Virus record (IMG/VR): IMGVR_UViG_3300025270_000064
Location: 1 to 28,107 of that record
Direction: 5' to 3' (one strand)
DNA length: 28,107 bases
DNA from: a virus
Taxonomy: Duplodnaviria; Caudoviricetes
Shown: positions 3,870-17,808 of the stretch, one piece after another
Layout: each line of letters begins with the position of its first letter
Position numbering within the stretch: the first letter of the stretch is position 1
Program-made: the position numbers and the translations under genes
The notes under the pieces: generated by a model
What the model was told of the DNA's origin: nothing
The model's input: only the letters and a program-made list of their open reading frames with translations
Database searches by the model: none

Positions 3870-6800
3870 TTATCTCCTGTATTGTTGTTGCTGCTGAGAT
3901 TGCGCCTGAGCAGCAATTGTTCTATTTATCATTTTTGAATTATTCTGAATATACTTAGTTATCTCATCTTGAGCCCAAACATAATACCTATCTGCCTGCT
4001 TTTCATAATGCTGTATATTCTGTACTGTTAAAGTAACTTCCTGTGTTTTATCAGATATCTCTGCCTGATACTTTTGCAGGTTAGCACTATATTCTTGTAA
4101 ATCTGTTGTCCTTTCAGCCTCCCACACACGTAGATCGCCTTCAAGATTTTGCTGATACTCTTGTACTTCAGTAGCTACTTTCAATTGATATTGTTGAAGT
4201 TCAGCAGAATACTTTTGAATCTTACTACTATTGTCAGCAATAACGTCTTCTATCTGTTTTGCTGCATTAGCAAGTGCAAGTGCTTGATCTTGAGCTTTAT
4301 TAAACTTATCAACATCAGTAGCTTGAGCTGATTCTTGCTCTGCATCTGCTCTATCTAATTGAGCTTGAGTTAAAACTTTCTGTAAATCTGAGTTATGTTT
4401 CGCTATTTCAGCTTGTATATTTGCTTGATATCTGACGTTTTCCTTATTGAATTCATTTAACTCATTCTGAATATCAGCCTGGAAAACTGCTATATTATCT
4501 GATTCAGTTTTTTGCCATGCTTGATAAGCTGTATTTACTTCCATTTGATATCTAGATATCTTTTGTGTGTACTCTTGTATCTCTTTACTAATATTAGCTT
4601 GATATGTGGCAGTTTCTGCTTGATATAGTGAAATTTTTCTTTGATTATCATTTACAACAGCCTGCATGTCATTAACACCATTCTGTAATTGTCTCTGTAA
4701 ATCCCTATCTTCATCAGTAGTAGCGGCTTGTAAGTCAGATTGAGCTTGAGCAAGATTAACTTGATTGGCAATCTGAATTTCCTGCATAGATTCCTGAATA
4801 GCAGATTGATAAGCAATATTTTCTTTATTGAACTCATTTAGTTCATTCTGTATATCGCTTCCATATTTCTGTAAGTCTGTTGTTCTCTCTGCTTGCCAAA
4901 CCTGTATATCACCAGCAAGATTTTGTTGATATTGTTGTACTTCTTTATTAATTGTTGCTTGGTATGTTTGAACTTCAGCTTGATACTTTTGAATTTTACG
5001 TGCTTCATGTGCGTCTAATAATTGTGCTTCTTGTAAGTATTCTTGCAGTATAGCTTGATACTTGGCATTTTCCTTATTGAACTCATTCAATTCATTTTGT
5101 ATATCACTGCCATACTTTTGCAAATCTGTCTGTCTTTCCGTCTGCCAGACTTGTATATCACCTTGAAGATTCTGTTGATATTCTTGAACTTGCTTATTCA
5201 CATCTTCACTGTATGTTTGAACTTCTGCTTGATATTTCTGTATCTTGCGAGCTTCATTTTGATCAAGCAACTGTGCTTCTTGTACATATTCTTGTAAGAT
5301 AGCTTGATATTTAACATTATCCTTGTTGAATTCATTTAGTTCATTTTGAATATCACTCGCATATTTTTGCAGATCAGTTTGCCTTTCTGCCTGCCATACT
5401 TGTATATCTCCAGCCAAATTTTGCTGGTACTCCTGTACCTCCTTGTTAACTACTGCCTGATATGTACCAACTTCTGCTTGATAAAGTGCAACCTTTCTAT
5501 TATTGTCCTGAACAATAGCCTGCATATCATTAGTACCATTTTGCAGCTGTCTTTGTTGATCTCTATCTTTATTGGTTGTTGCAAGCTGAAGATCGGATTG
5601 TGCTTTTGCAAGATTAACTCCATTAGCAACTTGAAGTTCTTGTATAGATTCTTGTATAGCAGACTGATACGCTATATTCTCCTTATTAAACTCATTTAAT
5701 TCGTTTTGAATATCACTTGCATACTTTTGTAAATCAGTCTGTCGTTCTGCTTCCCAAACTCTTAAATCCCCTTCAAGATTCTGTTGATATTCTTGAACTT
5801 CTTTAGCCACATCAGCTTGATATTTACTAATATTTGCCTGATATACTTGCAATTCAAGTGTATAATCTTGTATAGATGCCTGTAATGTTTGAGTAGCATT
5901 CTGAATATTAACATTCGTTGAAAGTTGCATTTGCTGTATAGCAGCTGTAGTTGATTGCTGCATTTTAGCAATAGATGCAGATGTGGACTGTTGCATTTTA
6001 GATATAGATGCGTTTACGTCATTAGACGCATTAGCAATAGAAGCTTGTACTAATGTTTGCATAGATGCATTATTAGTTGAGACATCATTAGCAGCATTTG
6101 CAATAGATGCTTGAGTACCATCGTTTGCATTTGATATAGCTACTTGAGTAGCTTGTCTAGCATCTTCAATAGTTGCCTGCATAGCAGCAGTTGAACTCTG
6201 CACTTCTGCTTGAAATGCACTTATATAAGAATTAATTTTTTGTATTTGAGCAGATGCTAATTCAACATCTTCCTCTCCCTCTATAAAATGTCCTATAGTA
6301 GACCACCATTGGTCTACCTCTAGTTGGTCAGCATGAACATCTATAGTATTATCAGTATCTAATATAGATACATCTGTTACTTCATCTCCATCTCCTCCAA
6401 CAGTAGGTTTTGTATAAGCAGATGCCGTTGAAGCCGTTGCGCTTGAAGCAGATGCATCGCCTGGAGCATCTGTATCTGACGTACCAGCAGCATCTGTTGG
6501 GCCATGTGTAATAGAATCAACAGCTTGAGTAATAGCATCTTGAGCTGCACTTACAGCATTACCAACTGAAGCATTTGAATATGAAATTGTTGGACTAGGA
6601 GGAGGAACAGGAGAAATAGCAGAAATAGATAAATCTGAAATCGTAGGTGTAGTCCCTAACGCAAGAACTGGCTTTGTATAGCCTGGAGCACTTCCAGTAT
6701 AAGTACTCGATGCAGCAACAGTTGCAGTTGTAAAAACAGGAGCACTAGCATCTAATGCAGAATCTATACTAGTAAAAGTTACAGATGTCAAAGATGGGAC

Positions 6801-8075
6801 TGCTGGAACTACTGCCGATATACTTAAATCTGAAATTGTAGGAGCTGCCCCCAATGCAATGACTGGTTTAGTATATGTCGGAGCGAAACTAGAAGGATCT
6901 GCAATAACTTGAGCAGATATTGACGGAACTGTTGGTACTACAGAAGTAATAGACAAATCTGAAATTGTTGGGGCAGCTTCTAATGATAATACAGGTTTAA
7001 TATATGTTGGAGCAAAGCTAGAGGGATCAGCAACAACCTGTGCAGATATTGATGGAACTGATGGAGGTACAGCACTAATACTCAAGTCAGATATTGTTGG
7101 AGCCGCTCCTAAAGCTACTACTGGTTTACTATAAGCAGGTGCTGATCCTGTATATACGCTAGATGCAGACAAAGTTGCAGTTGAGATTGTAGGCTTAACC
7201 ACATCTAAAGCGGTATCTACACTAGTAAAAGTAACAGACGTTAAAGATGGTACTGAAGGAGAAACAGATGTTAACGATAACACACCTGGATCACTGTCAC
7301 CAAATGGATTTCTATCCTCACTTTCATTAAAAAAATCTTCAAAAGATATTTGAGTTGGATGTCCTGGCTTTGTATAGCCTGGAACATCACCACTTATATC
7401 AGCTTTTGATACACTAGCTACTGTTATTGCCCCAACAGTAGTCGCACTTGCGTCTGCATTAGTAGCATCTGAATATGAAACTGTACTTATTGACGGTACA
7501 GCAGGTGGTACAGCAGAAACTGATAAATCAGAAATAGTAGGAGCTGCACCTAGTGAAGGAGCAACTGGCACTATAGGGGAGGACCAACTTGGAACAGTGC
7601 CTGTAGCCAGTTTTGCAAATTCCTGAGCAGATGCATGAAAAATAACTGCATTCCTTAAATCACAGTCATCATCTATCTGAGAATAATCCACATAATACAC
7701 ATACCCATCATTGCTTCCACCTGAAGAAGGATCTGGTTTTATGAATACCTTTCCCTGGGCATGATAGTATTTAGGATATAAATTAGTCGCTTTATGTAAA
7801 CTTGCACTATCATCAATCCACTTGCTCATACTGAATGGCACTTCAGAAGCAGGATAACCCTCCCTCTCAACTGCAAGCACACTATCAGCAGTTTGAACAT
7901 CGTATCCATTTGCATCTTGAATAGCTGAAGATTGTGAAGAAGCAAACCAAAGCAAATCTTTAGGAATGCTTGAAGCTATAAATCTTTGAGCAGAAACAAT
8001 AAAATCATCTGAAGCACCGTGTGCGGTTACTCCAGTTATTGAAACTATCTCAACTGATATGTTTGTTGTAGCCAT
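3870..8075 (-). CDS. 1401-aa virion protein: adaptor-like N-domain, six Pro/Ser/Thr-rich repeats, central turn, six Gln/Tyr-rich helical repeats
   Basis: Long ORF; repeats APTISDLS..VP..PS....YxKP and YxSDIQNELNEFNKEN...EYQQNLxGDxxVWxxERxTDLQK are directly visible. Confidence 0.85.
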   Translation of the reverse strand: MATTNISVEIVSITGVTAHGASDDFIVSAQRFIASSIPKDLLWFASSQSSAIQDANGYDVQTADSVLAVEREGYPASEVPFSMSKWIDDSASLHKATNLYPKYYHAQGKVFIKPDPSSGGSNDGYVYYVDYSQIDDDCDLRNAVIFHASAQEFAKLATGTVPSWSSPIVPVAPSLGAAPTISDLSVSAVPPAVPSISTVSYSDATNADASATTVGAITVASVSKADISGDVPGYTKPGHPTQISFEDFFNESEDRNPFGDSDPGVLSLTSVSPSVPSLTSVTFTSVDTALDVVKPTISTATLSASSVYTGSAPAYSKPVVALGAAPTISDLSISAVPPSVPSISAQVVADPSSFAPTYIKPVLSLEAAPTISDLSITSVVPTVPSISAQVIADPSSFAPTYTKPVIALGAAPTISDLSISAVVPAVPSLTSVTFTSIDSALDASAPVFTTATVAASSTYTGSAPGYTKPVLALGTTPTISDLSISAISPVPPPSPTISYSNASVGNAVSAAQDAITQAVDSITHGPTDAAGTSDTDAPGDASASSATASTASAYTKPTVGGDGDEVTDVSILDTDNTIDVHADQLEVDQWWSTIGHFIEGEEDVELASAQIQKINSYISAFQAEVQSSTAAMQATIEDARQATQVAISNANDGTQASIANAANDVSTNNASMQTLVQASIANASNDVNASISKMQQSTSASIAKMQQSTTAAIQQMQLSTNVNIQNATQTLQASIQDYTLELQVYQANISKYQADVAKEVQEYQQNLEGDLRVWEAERQTDLQKYASDIQNELNEFNKENIAYQSAIQESIQELQVANGVNLAKAQSDLQLATTNKDRDQQRQLQNGTNDMQAIVQDNNRKVALYQAEVGTYQAVVNKEVQEYQQNLAGDIQVWQAERQTDLQKYASDIQNELNEFNKDNVKYQAILQEYVQEAQLLDQNEARKIQKYQAEVQTYSEDVNKQVQEYQQNLQGDIQVWQTERQTDLQKYGSDIQNELNEFNKENAKYQAILQEYLQEAQLLDAHEARKIQKYQAEVQTYQATINKEVQQYQQNLAGDIQVWQAERTTDLQKYGSDIQNELNEFNKENIAYQSAIQESMQEIQIANQVNLAQAQSDLQAATTDEDRDLQRQLQNGVNDMQAVVNDNQRKISLYQAETATYQANISKEIQEYTQKISRYQMEVNTAYQAWQKTESDNIAVFQADIQNELNEFNKENVRYQANIQAEIAKHNSDLQKVLTQAQLDRADAEQESAQATDVDKFNKAQDQALALANAAKQIEDVIADNSSKIQKYSAELQQYQLKVATEVQEYQQNLEGDLRVWEAERTTDLQEYSANLQKYQAEISDKTQEVTLTVQNIQHYEKQADRYYVWAQDEITKYIQNNSKMINRTIAAQAQSQQQQQYRR
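4090..6214 (-). repeat. Coding repeats, alpha-helical units of about 164, 120, 83, 83, 127 and 131 aa
   Basis: DIQNELNEFNKxN occurs five times; units counted by hand from the translation. Confidence 0.85.
6404..7570 (-). repeat. Coding repeats, Pro/Ser/Thr-rich units of about 66, 81, 43, 43, 65 and 88 aa
   Basis: Each unit ends in YxKP; five of six contain PTISDLS. Confidence 0.85.
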
Positions 8076-11284: not shown

Positions 11285-13582
11285 TTACTTATTTTTGTCA
11301 TTACTTTGCAAATCTTTTTTTGCAAACTGTAATTCTCTTGATAAATCTTTCTTTGTAGCGTCTACTTGATTAGACATTACATTCTGTAAAAGCTTCTGTT
11401 TTGCCTCGGTTGAACGATAGGAATCCTTCAAATCACCCTTCACTTCTTCCTTCTTTTTAGTGATCTCCATCTCAGCCTGCATAACTTTACCCTTAATACC
11501 AGCCTGTACCAACTGTCTTTCCAGAGTTTCGATAGTCCCCTCCTTGTCTTTCAATGATTCCTGCAATTGTCCTAACTGGCCCTGTAACTGAGAGTATAGA
11601 CTCTTACGCTTCGCTATTTGTTCTTTATTCCGTATATCTGTTTCAGCAAGAACAGCAATATCATCCACAACACCAAACTTAAGAAGTTCCTTTAACTCAG
11701 CAAGGTATGCCCATCTGTTTACTGGCAATGTTGAACCAGCTACAATTTTCACGTCAAACTTGGCAGCTGAATAATCCATTGATTTCCCAATTGCCTGCCC
11801 CATGTCATTATAAATTGGAATATTTATCTCCTGCTGTCGTTCTTCCTGTATAGCAGAAGGCTGTATAATCCTGAATCTCTTATTAGCTGTATACACAGAT
11901 TGAGATATCTGCATTATAACTTTCCCCATCTGTCTCAAGGCTGGCTCTATAGAATGTTTCATCCACTGCTTAATTCTTCTTGTCCCATACTCATCAAGCG
12001 CAAGCATGCCCCTGAATGTTTCATGCTGCTGTTGTGTATCACCCTGCATTGATGAATAAATACCAGCAAGATACTCCATATCCTGCTTGGCTTCCTGTAC
12101 AACACTAAAAAACGCATTTGACAAAGGTGCTGGCATAATTGGAGTTGGTCTTTCAGATCCTGGTCTTACTGAAAGTAATGCTCCAGGTGAGGAAGAATAC
12201 TTCTCCCATTGATCTGGATCAATAGAACCTTCTTCATAAAGCCATCTTAGGGAAGAACCCAAAGATGCATTGTGTACCATTATCTGGTGAGATTTGTTTA
12301 TTTCTTTCTGCTTTCCTACCAAAGGGCCAACTGCAGATACTGGATAAGGAGTACCAGTCCACTTATAATGAAATGGAATTAACGGATAATCAACTACATT
12401 TTCTGGATATACAACTTCGTACAACAGTTTATCCCCTGCACATATTGTCTGTTTAATCCTGGTACCATAGAACTGCACAGCATCAACAATAGATTCCTGA
12501 AAAGCTTTATCTTTAAGCAATATCTTATATTCCTTTTCTGAAATAACTTTATTTTCAATCTTTGATGCTTCTGCCTGCAATTTACTCATATACTGCTGTT
12601 CAGCTGCCTGAAGCTGATCCTGCATCATTTGCTGGGCTTTCTTCATCTCCAATTCAAATCTTTCAGGAATCATCTTTCCTTCTTGAACAGCCTGCTGCAT
12701 TTGTTTCTGCTGTTCCATAAGCTCAACTTCCATCTCAGCAGCCATCTCCTTCATTTTTACTTGTACCTGCTGCTGAATAGCTTTTAATTGTTCTTTATTA
12801 GGAGGTATCCTGTAAAATACATTCATATAGGATATCTTAATCTTTTCGTAGAGTTCAAATAGTTCTAATGTTGGTTCATGCTGTCCTTCCGAATCAACTC
12901 CCATATCTTCGGCATTAGAGTCATCTCTTAAAAAAAGCTTTTGCTCTCTATCTGAAAGTGCTCTTTCTGAATAGGATCCATGACCTTCTAAAGAAGATGC
13001 ACTACTAATCTTACGTTTATAATGTGGAAAAAGCTTTGCAACATGACTTTTCGGAAGAACTTTTCTTATCAGGATATAAGATGCATCCCTGAACATCATA
13101 TCTCTGGACTTCGGATCTACATATATATCAAATGGTTCTGGCTGCTGTAACACAACCTCCCCCATGCCATTGTCCATATCTGTATCAACAGTAACCAGTA
13201 TATATCCAATTGATTTACAGATAGCATCATTTATTGCATTAGAATACAGAGCTGCACCGTCAGATAAGCTCCAGATATAATCAGAAAGATCTGAAAATAC
13301 TGCTGCTACATCAGAATCACTGCCTTCAACCCCAATAGCCTGCCATCTAGGATTATTGGCAGTAGCATAGAAATTCAGCATTTCAACTACAGGTAATATC
13401 CTGTTAATCGTAAATGTAGGCATGCCCTGATCCTGTAAAGCAGTTTTCTCATCAAAAGACAATTGTTCGTCATGAGCAAATTCATATCCTTTCTGGTTTA
13501 TGAACTGCCACTGACTACGTGTCCAGTTGCTGGACAGGTTATATAATTCTCTTATCTGATCTACTTTTTTCTTCTTAGCCAT
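11285..13582 (-). CDS. Portal protein (P22-like)
   Basis: 765 aa; PTFTINRILPVV, PFDIYVDP, YPLIPF, QKEINK, YLAGI motifs; Q/M-rich coiled-coil insertion and long C-terminal coiled-coil; downstream of TerL. Confidence 0.85.
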   Translation of the reverse strand: MAKKKKVDQIRELYNLSSNWTRSQWQFINQKGYEFAHDEQLSFDEKTALQDQGMPTFTINRILPVVEMLNFYATANNPRWQAIGVEGSDSDVAAVFSDLSDYIWSLSDGAALYSNAINDAICKSIGYILVTVDTDMDNGMGEVVLQQPEPFDIYVDPKSRDMMFRDASYILIRKVLPKSHVAKLFPHYKRKISSASSLEGHGSYSERALSDREQKLFLRDDSNAEDMGVDSEGQHEPTLELFELYEKIKISYMNVFYRIPPNKEQLKAIQQQVQVKMKEMAAEMEVELMEQQKQMQQAVQEGKMIPERFELEMKKAQQMMQDQLQAAEQQYMSKLQAEASKIENKVISEKEYKILLKDKAFQESIVDAVQFYGTRIKQTICAGDKLLYEVVYPENVVDYPLIPFHYKWTGTPYPVSAVGPLVGKQKEINKSHQIMVHNASLGSSLRWLYEEGSIDPDQWEKYSSSPGALLSVRPGSERPTPIMPAPLSNAFFSVVQEAKQDMEYLAGIYSSMQGDTQQQHETFRGMLALDEYGTRRIKQWMKHSIEPALRQMGKVIMQISQSVYTANKRFRIIQPSAIQEERQQEINIPIYNDMGQAIGKSMDYSAAKFDVKIVAGSTLPVNRWAYLAELKELLKFGVVDDIAVLAETDIRNKEQIAKRKSLYSQLQGQLGQLQESLKDKEGTIETLERQLVQAGIKGKVMQAEMEITKKKEEVKGDLKDSYRSTEAKQKLLQNVMSNQVDATKKDLSRELQFAKKDLQSNDKNK

Positions 13583-13828: not shown

Positions 13829-13857
13829 TTAACTTCCTTCTTTATACCAGTTAACCA

Positions 13858-14013
13858 TTATTTACCTTCTTTGTACTTATTCTTTGGAAAGTTGTAGTAA
13901 AAATTAGGCGTTTCACTTCCTTGTATCTTACTACCTCCCTTCCTGACATGCTTCTTCCCAACTGGATGAAGCTTTCCACTATCTGGTCAAATATGTAATG
14001 CTTCTTTAGGCAT
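13858..14013 (-). CDS. 51-aa His-rich protein with in-frame TGA at codon 9 (candidate selenoprotein, or pseudogene)
   Basis: MPKEALHI*PDSGKLHPVGKKHVRKGGSKIQGSETPNFYYNFPKNKYKEGK; ATG coupled to the upstream stop (TAATG); TGA at 13989-13987; hairpin follows. Confidence 0.55.
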
Positions 14014-14264
14014 TAGTAACCAGGCTTTTTAATTCCTCGAGATGCAGGTGCTTTCCCCATTGGTGCTTTTCCTGCTGGTGCTGCACCTGGACTTTTTTTA
14101 GCATATCCACCTTGATATTTAAGACATTTCTCTCTTTCTACTGGATCTATTATCTTACTACATACTTCTTTGCTTGGCATATCATGCCTCCTTCTTGTAT
14201 TTCCTGTTTTTAGTTCACTCTTATCTTCTACGGATAAGTCTGTGGTTGTAATTACGGATGGCAT
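14013..14264 (-). CDS. Small basic protein (83 aa) with an MCP-like N-terminus
   Basis: Start re-called to MPSVITTTDLS (ATG 14264 overlaps the TerL TAA). Confidence 0.7.
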   Translation of the reverse strand: MPSVITTTDLSVEDKSELKTGNTRRRHDMPSKEVCSKIIDPVEREKCLKYQGGYAKKSPGAAPAGKAPMGKAPASRGIKKPGY

Positions 14265-15820
14265 TAAGCTACCACCCAATCTTTTGCTTTAGGCTTCTTC
14301 TTATACCATTTGCCTTCTTTATCTTTACCTGCAGCTAATGGTGGATGAGCGAATTTGCAGGCATATGCAAGTGCATCTATAGTATCATCGTGCGCCATTC
14401 TTGGGCCAAAGGTTGTTATTTCCCTATGCAGATCATATTGCATTTTCTTGAGATGTATCTGCCCGATAGAGAACCTTTGAGCCAGTATTTCCTGTATTCG
14501 GTCTCTTTTACTCATCCTGGTGCCTGGTTTTTCAGCCTTGTATCCGATAGAGAAGTCATTTCTCCTTCTCATCTCCGAGTTAAGTGCCTGAAATATAGGC
14601 TTACTCATAGTAGTATCTTCAACTGTGAAGAGGTTAGGCTTATAACTTTTTGCGTACTGGAACATGTAATCTACAATTCCAAGTTTATTCTCTCCAGGTA
14701 TACCTAATACTGGGATGGACTGTTTCCTGATGTAGTCAAGAACATATATATTGTTGTCTGGAGTCACTGCTACAGCAATAATGACAGAGAAGTCGGAATC
14801 CCGTCTTGCTGAATCAGTTGCAGGATCCACACCAACAAATACACTGCAGGGTTGGTAGCCTTGGTCGTTTGCATCTATAAATGAAAGACCAGTATCTTTA
14901 TCTACATAGAACTTGCCATCCCAGTATTTAATGTGATCTCTGGTAAATATTGCATCTTCAGCACTCTGTACTTCCATCATATACTCTTGATAAAACTTCT
15001 GTGGAGTACCTGAGTCCTGATAAAATTTCTTTTTTCTGTTCATCTCCTTCATTCCAAACCAATCTGGCCAGAGAGGAGTACCATCTTCCTGTAATGCCTT
15101 ATAAGTTATGACATGCCAGCTAAATCTTTCCGCTTTCCTTAATGATTGCTGATATCCAACGAGGATCTTCTGTATAAATGAATCATAATGCACTGGGGTG
15201 CCATTGATCCTTAATCTTCCCGTTTTCGGCTCCAAAGCAGGAAAGACAACCGCTGTAACAAGGTTTGATATTTTCGAGCGACTCTCAGGCGTAATAGTAT
15301 TATTCTCGTCCTCAAAATCATCCAGTACAATGAGATCGTATCTCTTATGGAGTTTCGCTCCACCTCTTATACCCGAAAGGTTAGATTTTGATATAAGTTT
15401 ACAGTTATTGTTAAGTTCAATATCATCTTCAGTCCACTTCCTTCCTTTTAAATCACCAAAGTAATACTTTACTTTATCATTATATTCAATGTGATACTTG
15501 ATATAATCAAGGTTAGGCACAGATATTTTGGAACTTGCTGCCACCCAACCATAGAATAAAGGTTCCTTAGTAAAAAGGAAGTCATGAAGAATGCTGCACT
15601 TGGTGAGTACTGTCTTTCCATGTCCTCTAGGGAGAATTACAGCCAGCTGCCTGATGTCCCTGTTATCAACTGCATCTGCCACTTCATAATGAAAAAATGG
15701 TGTTTCACTACGTGTAAAGTCATCTGGTAGAAATAACTTACCAAATGCTATTAAGTCCTCATATGCGAGTTTAAGCTCTTCTTCAGCTTTTGAAACGACT
15801 TTTGTGTTAAAATTCGCCAT
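14264..15820 (-). CDS. terL: Terminase large subunit
   Basis: Walker A PRGHGKT, Walker B LIVLDDFED, motif III NGTP, RNase H-like nuclease GVDPA..DFS and HDDTIDALAYA. Confidence 0.93.
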   Translation of the reverse strand: MANFNTKVVSKAEEELKLAYEDLIAFGKLFLPDDFTRSETPFFHYEVADAVDNRDIRQLAVILPRGHGKTVLTKCSILHDFLFTKEPLFYGWVAASSKISVPNLDYIKYHIEYNDKVKYYFGDLKGRKWTEDDIELNNNCKLISKSNLSGIRGGAKLHKRYDLIVLDDFEDENNTITPESRSKISNLVTAVVFPALEPKTGRLRINGTPVHYDSFIQKILVGYQQSLRKAERFSWHVITYKALQEDGTPLWPDWFGMKEMNRKKKFYQDSGTPQKFYQEYMMEVQSAEDAIFTRDHIKYWDGKFYVDKDTGLSFIDANDQGYQPCSVFVGVDPATDSARRDSDFSVIIAVAVTPDNNIYVLDYIRKQSIPVLGIPGENKLGIVDYMFQYAKSYKPNLFTVEDTTMSKPIFQALNSEMRRRNDFSIGYKAEKPGTRMSKRDRIQEILAQRFSIGQIHLKKMQYDLHREITTFGPRMAHDDTIDALAYACKFAHPPLAAGKDKEGKWYKKKPKAKDWVVA

Positions 15821-17580: not shown

Positions 17581-17808
17581 GCCCTACCTTTCGTCAAAGC
17601 CAGTACCATTCATAGTCTGACTATTGTCTGTCCATACCTTGAGTTATAGTAAGGATTGTTGCGGCAATATCGGAGAAAATTCGAGGGTAGTATATGCTTG
17701 TCTATTCAAGTTAACCCCTTGTAATCCGACTTCTGACCCTTAAGGCAGTACTAATGCTAGGGTACCTTCTGGGTGATTCTTTTGTCTTTGTTGACATCTG
17801 ATTGCCTA
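17581..17808 (-). ncRNA. ~230-nt structured leader of the packaging/structural arm
   Basis: No sizeable ORF between the promoter and the first gene; stems ACCCU/AGGGU with inner GCA/UGC, UCCUUAC/GUAUGGA, CUACC/GGUAG over the SD. Confidence 0.4.

Follow-up and report, generated by a model that had tools for sequence, protein, structure and literature searches.

We have found that a small gene, located between the genes for the terminase large subunit (TerL) and the portal protein of a phage, contains an in-frame UGA that is retained by its relatives together with the reading frame on both sides and a hairpin at a nearly fixed distance downstream. This conserved recoding signal is real, and the gene most likely represents a new family of phage selenoproteins, which works like a bacterial SECIS gene and falls in no described family. 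The stretch analysed (henceforth the window) is the whole of the IMG/VR record IMGVR_UViG_3300025270_000064, 28,107 nucleotides, and carries terminase, P22-like portal and SU10-type capsid genes, all of them on the minus strand. We regard it as very likely that the UGA is decoded, and as likely that it is decoded as selenocysteine (Sec) by host SelB binding the G or GU of the hairpin loop. The Sec interpretation had been put forward in a first-pass annotation of the sequence, and the conservation of the UGA, the frame before and after it, three His residues and the position of the hairpin supports it, the identity of the residue being likely on the strength of these features.

Translated from position 14013 to 13858, the ORF begins with MPKEALHI-UGA-PDSGKLHPVGKKH... 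and has 42 codons past the UGA, so that the complete read-through product of this gene between TerL and portal is MPKEALHI-UGA-PDSGKLHPVGKKHVRKGGSKIQGSETPNFYYNFPKNKYKEGK-stop. The first-pass annotation had described the same reading, although it did not state that the gene lies on the minus strand. It was also right about the coupling of the start to the upstream stop, since the ATG of the UGA gene overlaps the stop of the preceding ORF (TAATG), and about the H-x-*-x6-H-x5-H spacing, which in the window protein is H7-x-U9-P-x5-H16-P-V-x3-H22. The coordinates of these elements and of the neighboring genes are listed in Table 1. The upstream ORF gave no PHROG or Pfam match. At the other end of the gene, the purine run that encodes the YKEGK end probably also acts as ribosome-binding site for the gene that follows.

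Table 1. Location in the window of the UGA gene, its internal elements and the genes around it.
Feature	Position	Strand	Evidence or remarks
Terminase large subunit	14264..15820	-	phrog_38, E 3e-75
Upstream small basic ORF, likely start 14180; stop overlaps ATG of the UGA gene	14013..14279	-	ORF list
Read-through ORF, 51 codons, UGA = codon 9	13858..14013	-	Product small and basic, with 10 Lys
In-frame UGA, likely Sec, followed by C	13987..13989	-	TGA in 118/120 viral motif matches; intact in independent contigs
Portable 16-codon core, His7 to His22, common to all relatives	13948..13995	-	Motif scans
SECIS-like hairpin, loop AGUUG 13963-13959	13950..13972	-	G at nt 28, U at nt 29 (U of UGA = 1)
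YKEGK end	13861..13875	-	Sequence; next start overlaps/abuts stop in 54/95 relatives
Downstream ORF, 80 aa	13586..13828	-	Hypothetical protein
Portal protein	11285..13582	-	phrog_156; PF16510

A few other features of the region were observed. A mini-ORF of nine codons (MVNWYKEGS, 13829-13858, minus strand) has its start within the stop of the UGA gene and terminates immediately ahead of the 80-aa ORF. The YKEG end recurs in it, and it may be a duplicated coupling cassette. The database protein P0061 has a two-Cys N-terminus like that of the window upstream ORF (14013-14180, minus strand) joined to an HPV-x3-H tail, with the UGA half absent, and it may be a natural fusion with Cys residues in place of the H-x-U half. 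Farther away, a Pistol ribozyme (RF02679, 18437-18501, plus strand, 62.5 bits vs. a gathering score of 34.5) sits in a long non-coding stretch between divergent gene blocks, and a protein of 1401 aa (3870-8075, minus strand) that has no PHROG match has long repeats inside it, and one of its halves is rich in Gln and resembles a coiled coil. A promoter scan gave results at chance level only. The RNA runs X18-X20 covered small shares of the record in which the ORF is not included, and have therefore no bearing on its expression.

The UGA is not a peculiarity of one assembly. Two runs that are not flagged as possible sources, X9 (depth 69) and X14 (depth 34), yielded assembled contigs (not raw reads) identical over the ORF, and the TGA was untouched among the 40 best-supported differences listed for the variants in X16 and X17. 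A tblastn search retrieved 13 loci: three identical, eight full-length relatives with 63-76% identity, in all of which the TGA occupies the same codon, one fragment without the site and one chance match. We have also scanned viral sequences (34 of the 64 parts of the collection) with the pattern H-x-TGN-P-x5-H-P-V-x3-H, leaving the third base of TGN free. This way, we obtained 120 matches, 118 with TGA, two with TGC and none with TGG; the two TGC matches look unrelated. The viral matches in the whole collection are estimated at ca. 230. As a control, the same pattern gave 51 matches in 185,579 prokaryote genomes, seven with TGA, all chance-like and none family-like. When the N-terminal half of the pattern was imposed alone, TGA was found in 15 of 17 matches and both downstream His were at the same spacing in 15 out of 15, and each of the 15 profile matches in 27 related records had one TGA. 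For the comparisons that follow, the pooled family sets were collapsed to distinct 54-mers, giving 106 members (motif-pattern filter and GC of 0.52 or less) and later 120 (motif-pattern filter, GC of 0.47 or less and no internal stop). A sequencing error or a private TGY-to-TGA nonsense mutation, the alternative contemplated in the first-pass annotation, is excluded by the independent contigs and by the family census. The TGA recurs in those contigs, is shared by the relatives and is followed by a conserved frame, and the homologue search proposed in that annotation returned TGA plus a conserved hairpin in relatives.

The hairpin of the window, GCUUC-A-UCC-[AGUUG]-GGA-A-GAAGC, folds as originally described, with its loop 23 nt past the UGA. 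Its predicted stability is -10.5 kcal/mol (z -2.35, with 5 of 200 shuffles equally stable); that of the whole 63-nt stretch is ordinary (z -0.77). The additional pairing of UGAC with GUCA found no support, as it is outside the minimum-energy fold and positions 43-46 vary freely in relatives, i.e., this lower stem is not conserved. According to the available text of PMC13188914, the consensus for bacterial SECIS elements is a loop of 3-9 nt, a G in the first two loop positions, a spacing of 16-37 nt, a stem of four or more pairs and a stability of -7.5 kcal/mol or lower, and the window hairpin has every one of these properties, with -11.9 kcal/mol in this comparison, a spacing of 23 nt and the loop AGUUG. 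The SECIS geometry was present in 109 of 120 members, in 25 of 25 selD controls (Dehalococcoidia genes, 25 of the 31 loci that fitted the search pattern) and in 20 of 80 ordinary phage TGA stops. Adding the cut-off of -7.5 kcal/mol left 54/120 members, 24/25 selD genes and none of the 80 ordinary stops.

Throughout the family the loop is located 22-24 nt past the UGA, although its sequence comes in three forms over the same peptide: class A (AGUUN or GUU), class B (GGU) and a single member, L608, with GGGCA. G28-U29 was found in the hairpin loop of 97 of the 106 members, vs. 50 expected for the same peptides randomly recoded. A purine occupies nt 27 in 105/106, and nt 27 and 30 are linked (A-U in 75 members, G-G in 25). 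Pair 24:34 is C-G in 42 and U-A in 22 of 80 sequences, with a nominal p of 9e-9 that ignores kinship. In the class A alignment (38 sequences) none of 500 shuffles attained the covariation score and slid registers scored lower, the counts being inflated by kinship. The structure of the hairpin is thus conserved beyond the needs of the peptide. The stem below the three core pairs is loose in many members, the codons of H-P-V overlap the hairpin, and there was no match to the Rfam SECIS models. A blind scan for a start, a UGA and a hairpin in the free space of 12 records gave 13 candidates, with the family gene in nine, at 23-24 nt, and no further recurring Sec candidate in the same records. One weak candidate, at 17618 of the window (plus strand), is intergenic, has -6.3 kcal/mol and is absent from other records, and is probably due to chance.

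Selection acts on the coding frame both before and after the UGA. An upstream in-frame start is present in 105 of the 106 members, and there was not a single in-frame stop in the 1378 codons after the UGA, vs. 20 and 207 in the shifted frames. In the region beyond the hairpin, excluding the last five codons, 23 non-overlapping pairs had 84, 54 and 168 differences at codon positions 1, 2 and 3; their pN/pS was 0.33 in the reading frame, vs. 1.14 and 1.98 in the other two. Conservation is three-periodic, with synonymous His codons, both of which are in use at all three His positions of the motif. Moreover, when the RNA features alone were imposed (class A and class B scans) and the flanking His were left free, 70 of the 91 distinct class A matches had both His, as did 35 of the 38 AT-rich class B matches. 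Five of these 70 belong to a group that is unrelated and GC-rich, and the GC is 0.45 or more in all 21 class A matches lacking the His. The Pro and Val of H-P-V are variable (members L043 and L608 carry H-R-A or H-S-V), and P0203 and P0204, two longer relatives, have Asp and not Pro after the recoded site, indicating that Pro is not strictly needed there. Frameshift or bypass was rejected, because the reading frame before the UGA continues unchanged after it and the intervening residues are conserved.

Under a different explanation the UGA would be a true stop, and what is conserved would be an element in the RNA or DNA, or else a leader peptide plus a separately started downstream ORF. The hairpin is indeed conserved at the RNA level, and in 45 of the 106 members an ATG, GTG or TTG occurs in frame in the first 13 codons past the UGA. 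However, the window ORF has none of these codons anywhere past the UGA, yet its tail is under purifying selection (pair L014/L028). The three-periodic conservation, the synonymous His codons and the lack of in-frame stops all point to translation through the UGA, as do seven long ORFs that stop exactly at the last His, 13 codons past the UGA. We therefore find a true stop very unlikely.

TGA is otherwise a normal stop in these phages. As the first-pass annotation had pointed out, four ATGA overlaps of the window use it to end a gene; besides, 11 checked genes are without internal TGA, and it terminates long ORFs in all 12 records examined. No tRNA-Sec above the cut-off and no UGA-reading tRNA were found in 27 related records. 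Seven tRNA-like matches, a single one in each of seven related records (L451-L457), had the anticodon CAT, four of them called by ARAGORN and three read from sequence. A global reassignment of UGA in phage or host (code 4 or 25), or a suppressor tRNA of the phage, might be invoked from the tRNAs of several relatives and from the database gene calls that use TGA as Trp. Nevertheless, the normal use of TGA as a stop, the CAT anticodons and the absence of in-frame TGA in core genes led us to reject recoding at the level of the genome, and we hold it to be extremely unlikely.

The gene calls themselves require some comment. At the site of the UGA, 49 of 73 database proteins have Trp and one (P0003) has Arg. 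Eight of the Trp-bearing proteins were traceable to fetched DNA, which contained TGA in all eight and TGG in none, and several of them continue through a terminal TGA. These two facts indicate that the Trp proteins are code-4 gene calls, and a true TGG is ruled out for the eight that can be traced to DNA. Neither did any DNA scan reveal a TGG member. These results bear on a further possibility, a programmed leaky read-through that inserts a standard residue, most likely Trp, with the UGA-C context and the hairpin slowing termination and the UGA setting a low expression ratio. Read-through of a UGA is known in phage Qbeta, so that there is a precedent, and in the family the base after the UGA is invariably C, a base seldom found after true TGA stops (3/80). 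The lack of Cys homologues and the Trp in the 49 database proteins would also fit. We nevertheless judge it unlikely, since the Trp is an artefact of gene calling where it can be checked, a free-standing gene of 40-50 aa should sometimes fix TGG if Trp worked, and the G is kept at one fixed distance in three forms of hairpin, as recognition by SelB would require.

Nearly all selenoproteins have Cys homologues, as stated in PMC13188914, and the first-pass annotation had proposed to look for them. None was found: there was no Cys version among 28 non-TGA viral matches in the whole collection, among 120 non-TGA metagenome matches in 24 of 64 parts, or among 72, 22 and 2 profile hits, short motifs being hard for profiles. 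Two candidates were discarded. L600 (1-621), a long phage ORF whose sequence YHICPYSGK imitates the first half of the motif with Cys at the site, lacks both downstream His and any Pfam match and was taken as a generic turn, and P0194 is an unrelated repeat protein. The missing TGG weighs equally against Trp, and it is simplest to suppose that no standard residue works at this position.

The core motif H-x-UGA-P-x5-H-P-V-x3-H was found in three types of carriers. The first are ORFs of 40-60 aa adjoining TerS, TerL or portal, the second is the 13-codon C-terminal tail, ending at the last His, of the seven longer ORFs mentioned above, and the third are long ORFs (482-959 codons) that have the UGA at codon 8 and belong to a second phage group, with a T4-type prohead protease. 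The 16-codon motif is therefore portable, appearing as a small ORF, as a C-terminal tail or at the N-terminus of the long proteins of the T4-like group. The UGA gene is also accessory, being gained and lost among close relatives. It is held by 14 of 80 loci selected by TerL and by 11 of 57 complete TerL-portal intervals, and a quick version of the TerL tree gave five gain/loss changes, of which starred branches force only two. In 54 of 95 members the stop is overlapped or directly adjoined by the start of the next gene, often portal, TerL or TerS, and the 3' end of the gene carries its own Shine-Dalgarno-like run.

This arrangement could suggest that Sec is inserted mainly as a selenium sensor or a SelB sink, with read-through gating the downstream head genes or the long T4-like proteins and the peptide being secondary. 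The overlapping starts just mentioned and the position of the UGA at codon 8 of such long ORFs would agree with it, and a role that needs the UGA itself would fit the absence of a Cys version. We consider it quite unlikely, as the three His are kept at the protein level on both sides of the UGA, close relatives do without the gene, the Shine-Dalgarno-like run is the gene's own and overlapping starts are normal in the window genome.

In four records (G001, G002, G011 and G027) the long ORFs opened by the motif (L433, L437, L445 and L449) contain repeated ES(I/V)NE words, which, following the logic of T4, we take to look like prohead-protease cleavage sites. The T4-like record G027 also has a large block of nucleotide-sugar genes, panB, an acetolactate synthase and a CCA-adding enzyme (L446-L448). 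Regarding the host, the TerL is ca. 24% identical to those of the nearest cultured phages, and no clue came from cultured phages, cluster names, the Atlas taxa for the capsid protein or the gene content of related records. There are abundant Sec users in the sea, such as Actinomarina (10.64898/2026.04.03.716425, in the part of the text available), and we detected selD in 84 of 121 sampled Dehalococcoidia genomes; no link of either group to the window phage was seen.

The read-through protein had no Pfam, PDB sequence or fold match, the latter with a low-confidence AlphaFold model (mean pLDDT 65, pTM 0.31) that has strands at residues 6-8 and 15-17. At the level of the family there was no match in NCBIfam, Pfam or PHROGs, with 0 NCBIfam families for 44 members. 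With no fold match and a weak model, it is the conservation that argues for a metal site. We are slightly in favor of H7, U9 and H16 lying on a beta-hairpin and forming with H22 a single metal or redox site. The sequence of events would be as follows. Late in infection the head operon would be translated, and host SelB with Sec-tRNA would bind the loop G and decode the UGA as selenocysteine, by analogy with established bacterial Sec insertion. The predicted strands would place H7, U9 and H16 close to one another, H22 being a candidate for the fourth ligand, and the product would be a small basic protein predicted to hold metal by three His and one Sec. Internal proteins of the head would in this way be tagged with a metal or redox site, a reading suggested by the carriers: small proteins rich in Lys and encoded in the head module, or the long proteins of the head region in the T4-like group. 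We propose, tentatively, that the motif serves to tag basic late proteins destined for packing into the head. There it would buffer metals or oxidants, either close to the DNA or inside the cell just after infection. It is conceivable, if somewhat doubtful, that two unrelated groups of ocean phages share a 48-nt Sec cassette (UGA, SECIS and a His3-Sec metal site), on either end of head proteins or alone, in which Cys cannot replace Se, and that selenoproteins travel in the virions to the next host.

A family without Cys homologues escapes the usual searches based on Sec/Cys pairs, and gene callers shorten the gene or write Trp. In the literature searched, which included few subscription papers and no supplements (where such families could be listed), we found no phage selenoprotein in print. 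The words phage, virus and viral are absent from the main text of a 2026 inventory of 119 prokaryotic families (PMC13188914), and the phage motif is absent from its table of 119 selenoprotein families (Table 1 in that work). If our interpretation is true, the hosts of these common marine phages use selenocysteine, providing a new handle on host prediction, and the production of virions is tied to the selenium cycle of the ocean. A natural Sec cassette of 48 nt, with three SECIS forms over one peptide, would then make recognition by SelB and the question of why Se and not S directly testable.

There are several known systems with which the family can be compared. C2H2 and rubredoxin-type fingers are zinc-knuckle beta-hairpins with an x-C-P-x-x-G-K turn. 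The phage motif resembles them in the geometry of this turn and, in the model, in the strands predicted at 6-8 and 15-17, but the second Cys is missing, three His flank the site and Pfam, PDB and fold searches gave no match. Among viruses, the available text of PMC8310308 describes poxvirus selenoproteins (GPX1 of molluscum contagiosum and GPX4 of fowlpox) that are captured host glutathione peroxidases with eukaryotic SECIS. As would be the case in the phages, the virus uses the machinery of the host to read UGA as Sec; the phage family has, in contrast, a bacterial-type SECIS and was seen only in phage records. tRNA-Sec genes have been described in huge wastewater phages, suggesting that phages can touch Sec decoding, with no selenoprotein gene named in the accessible part of that work (PMC10747093). 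The window phage has the opposite combination, a candidate selenoprotein gene and no tRNA-Sec of its own. Short loops of three bases (e.g., GUC, GUU and GUG) are likewise found in selD genes of Dehalococcoidia, and there is a similarity with bacterial SelB/SECIS selenoprotein genes at large, of which fdhF of E. coli is an example. The phage genes share with the latter the in-frame UGA and a hairpin inside the ORF 16-37 nt downstream, with a loop of 3-9 nt and G in the first two loop positions (PMC13188914, available text). They differ in being encoded by phages, in having neither Cys homologues nor a second Cys nearby, and in consisting of a portable module of 16 codons rather than an enzyme fold.
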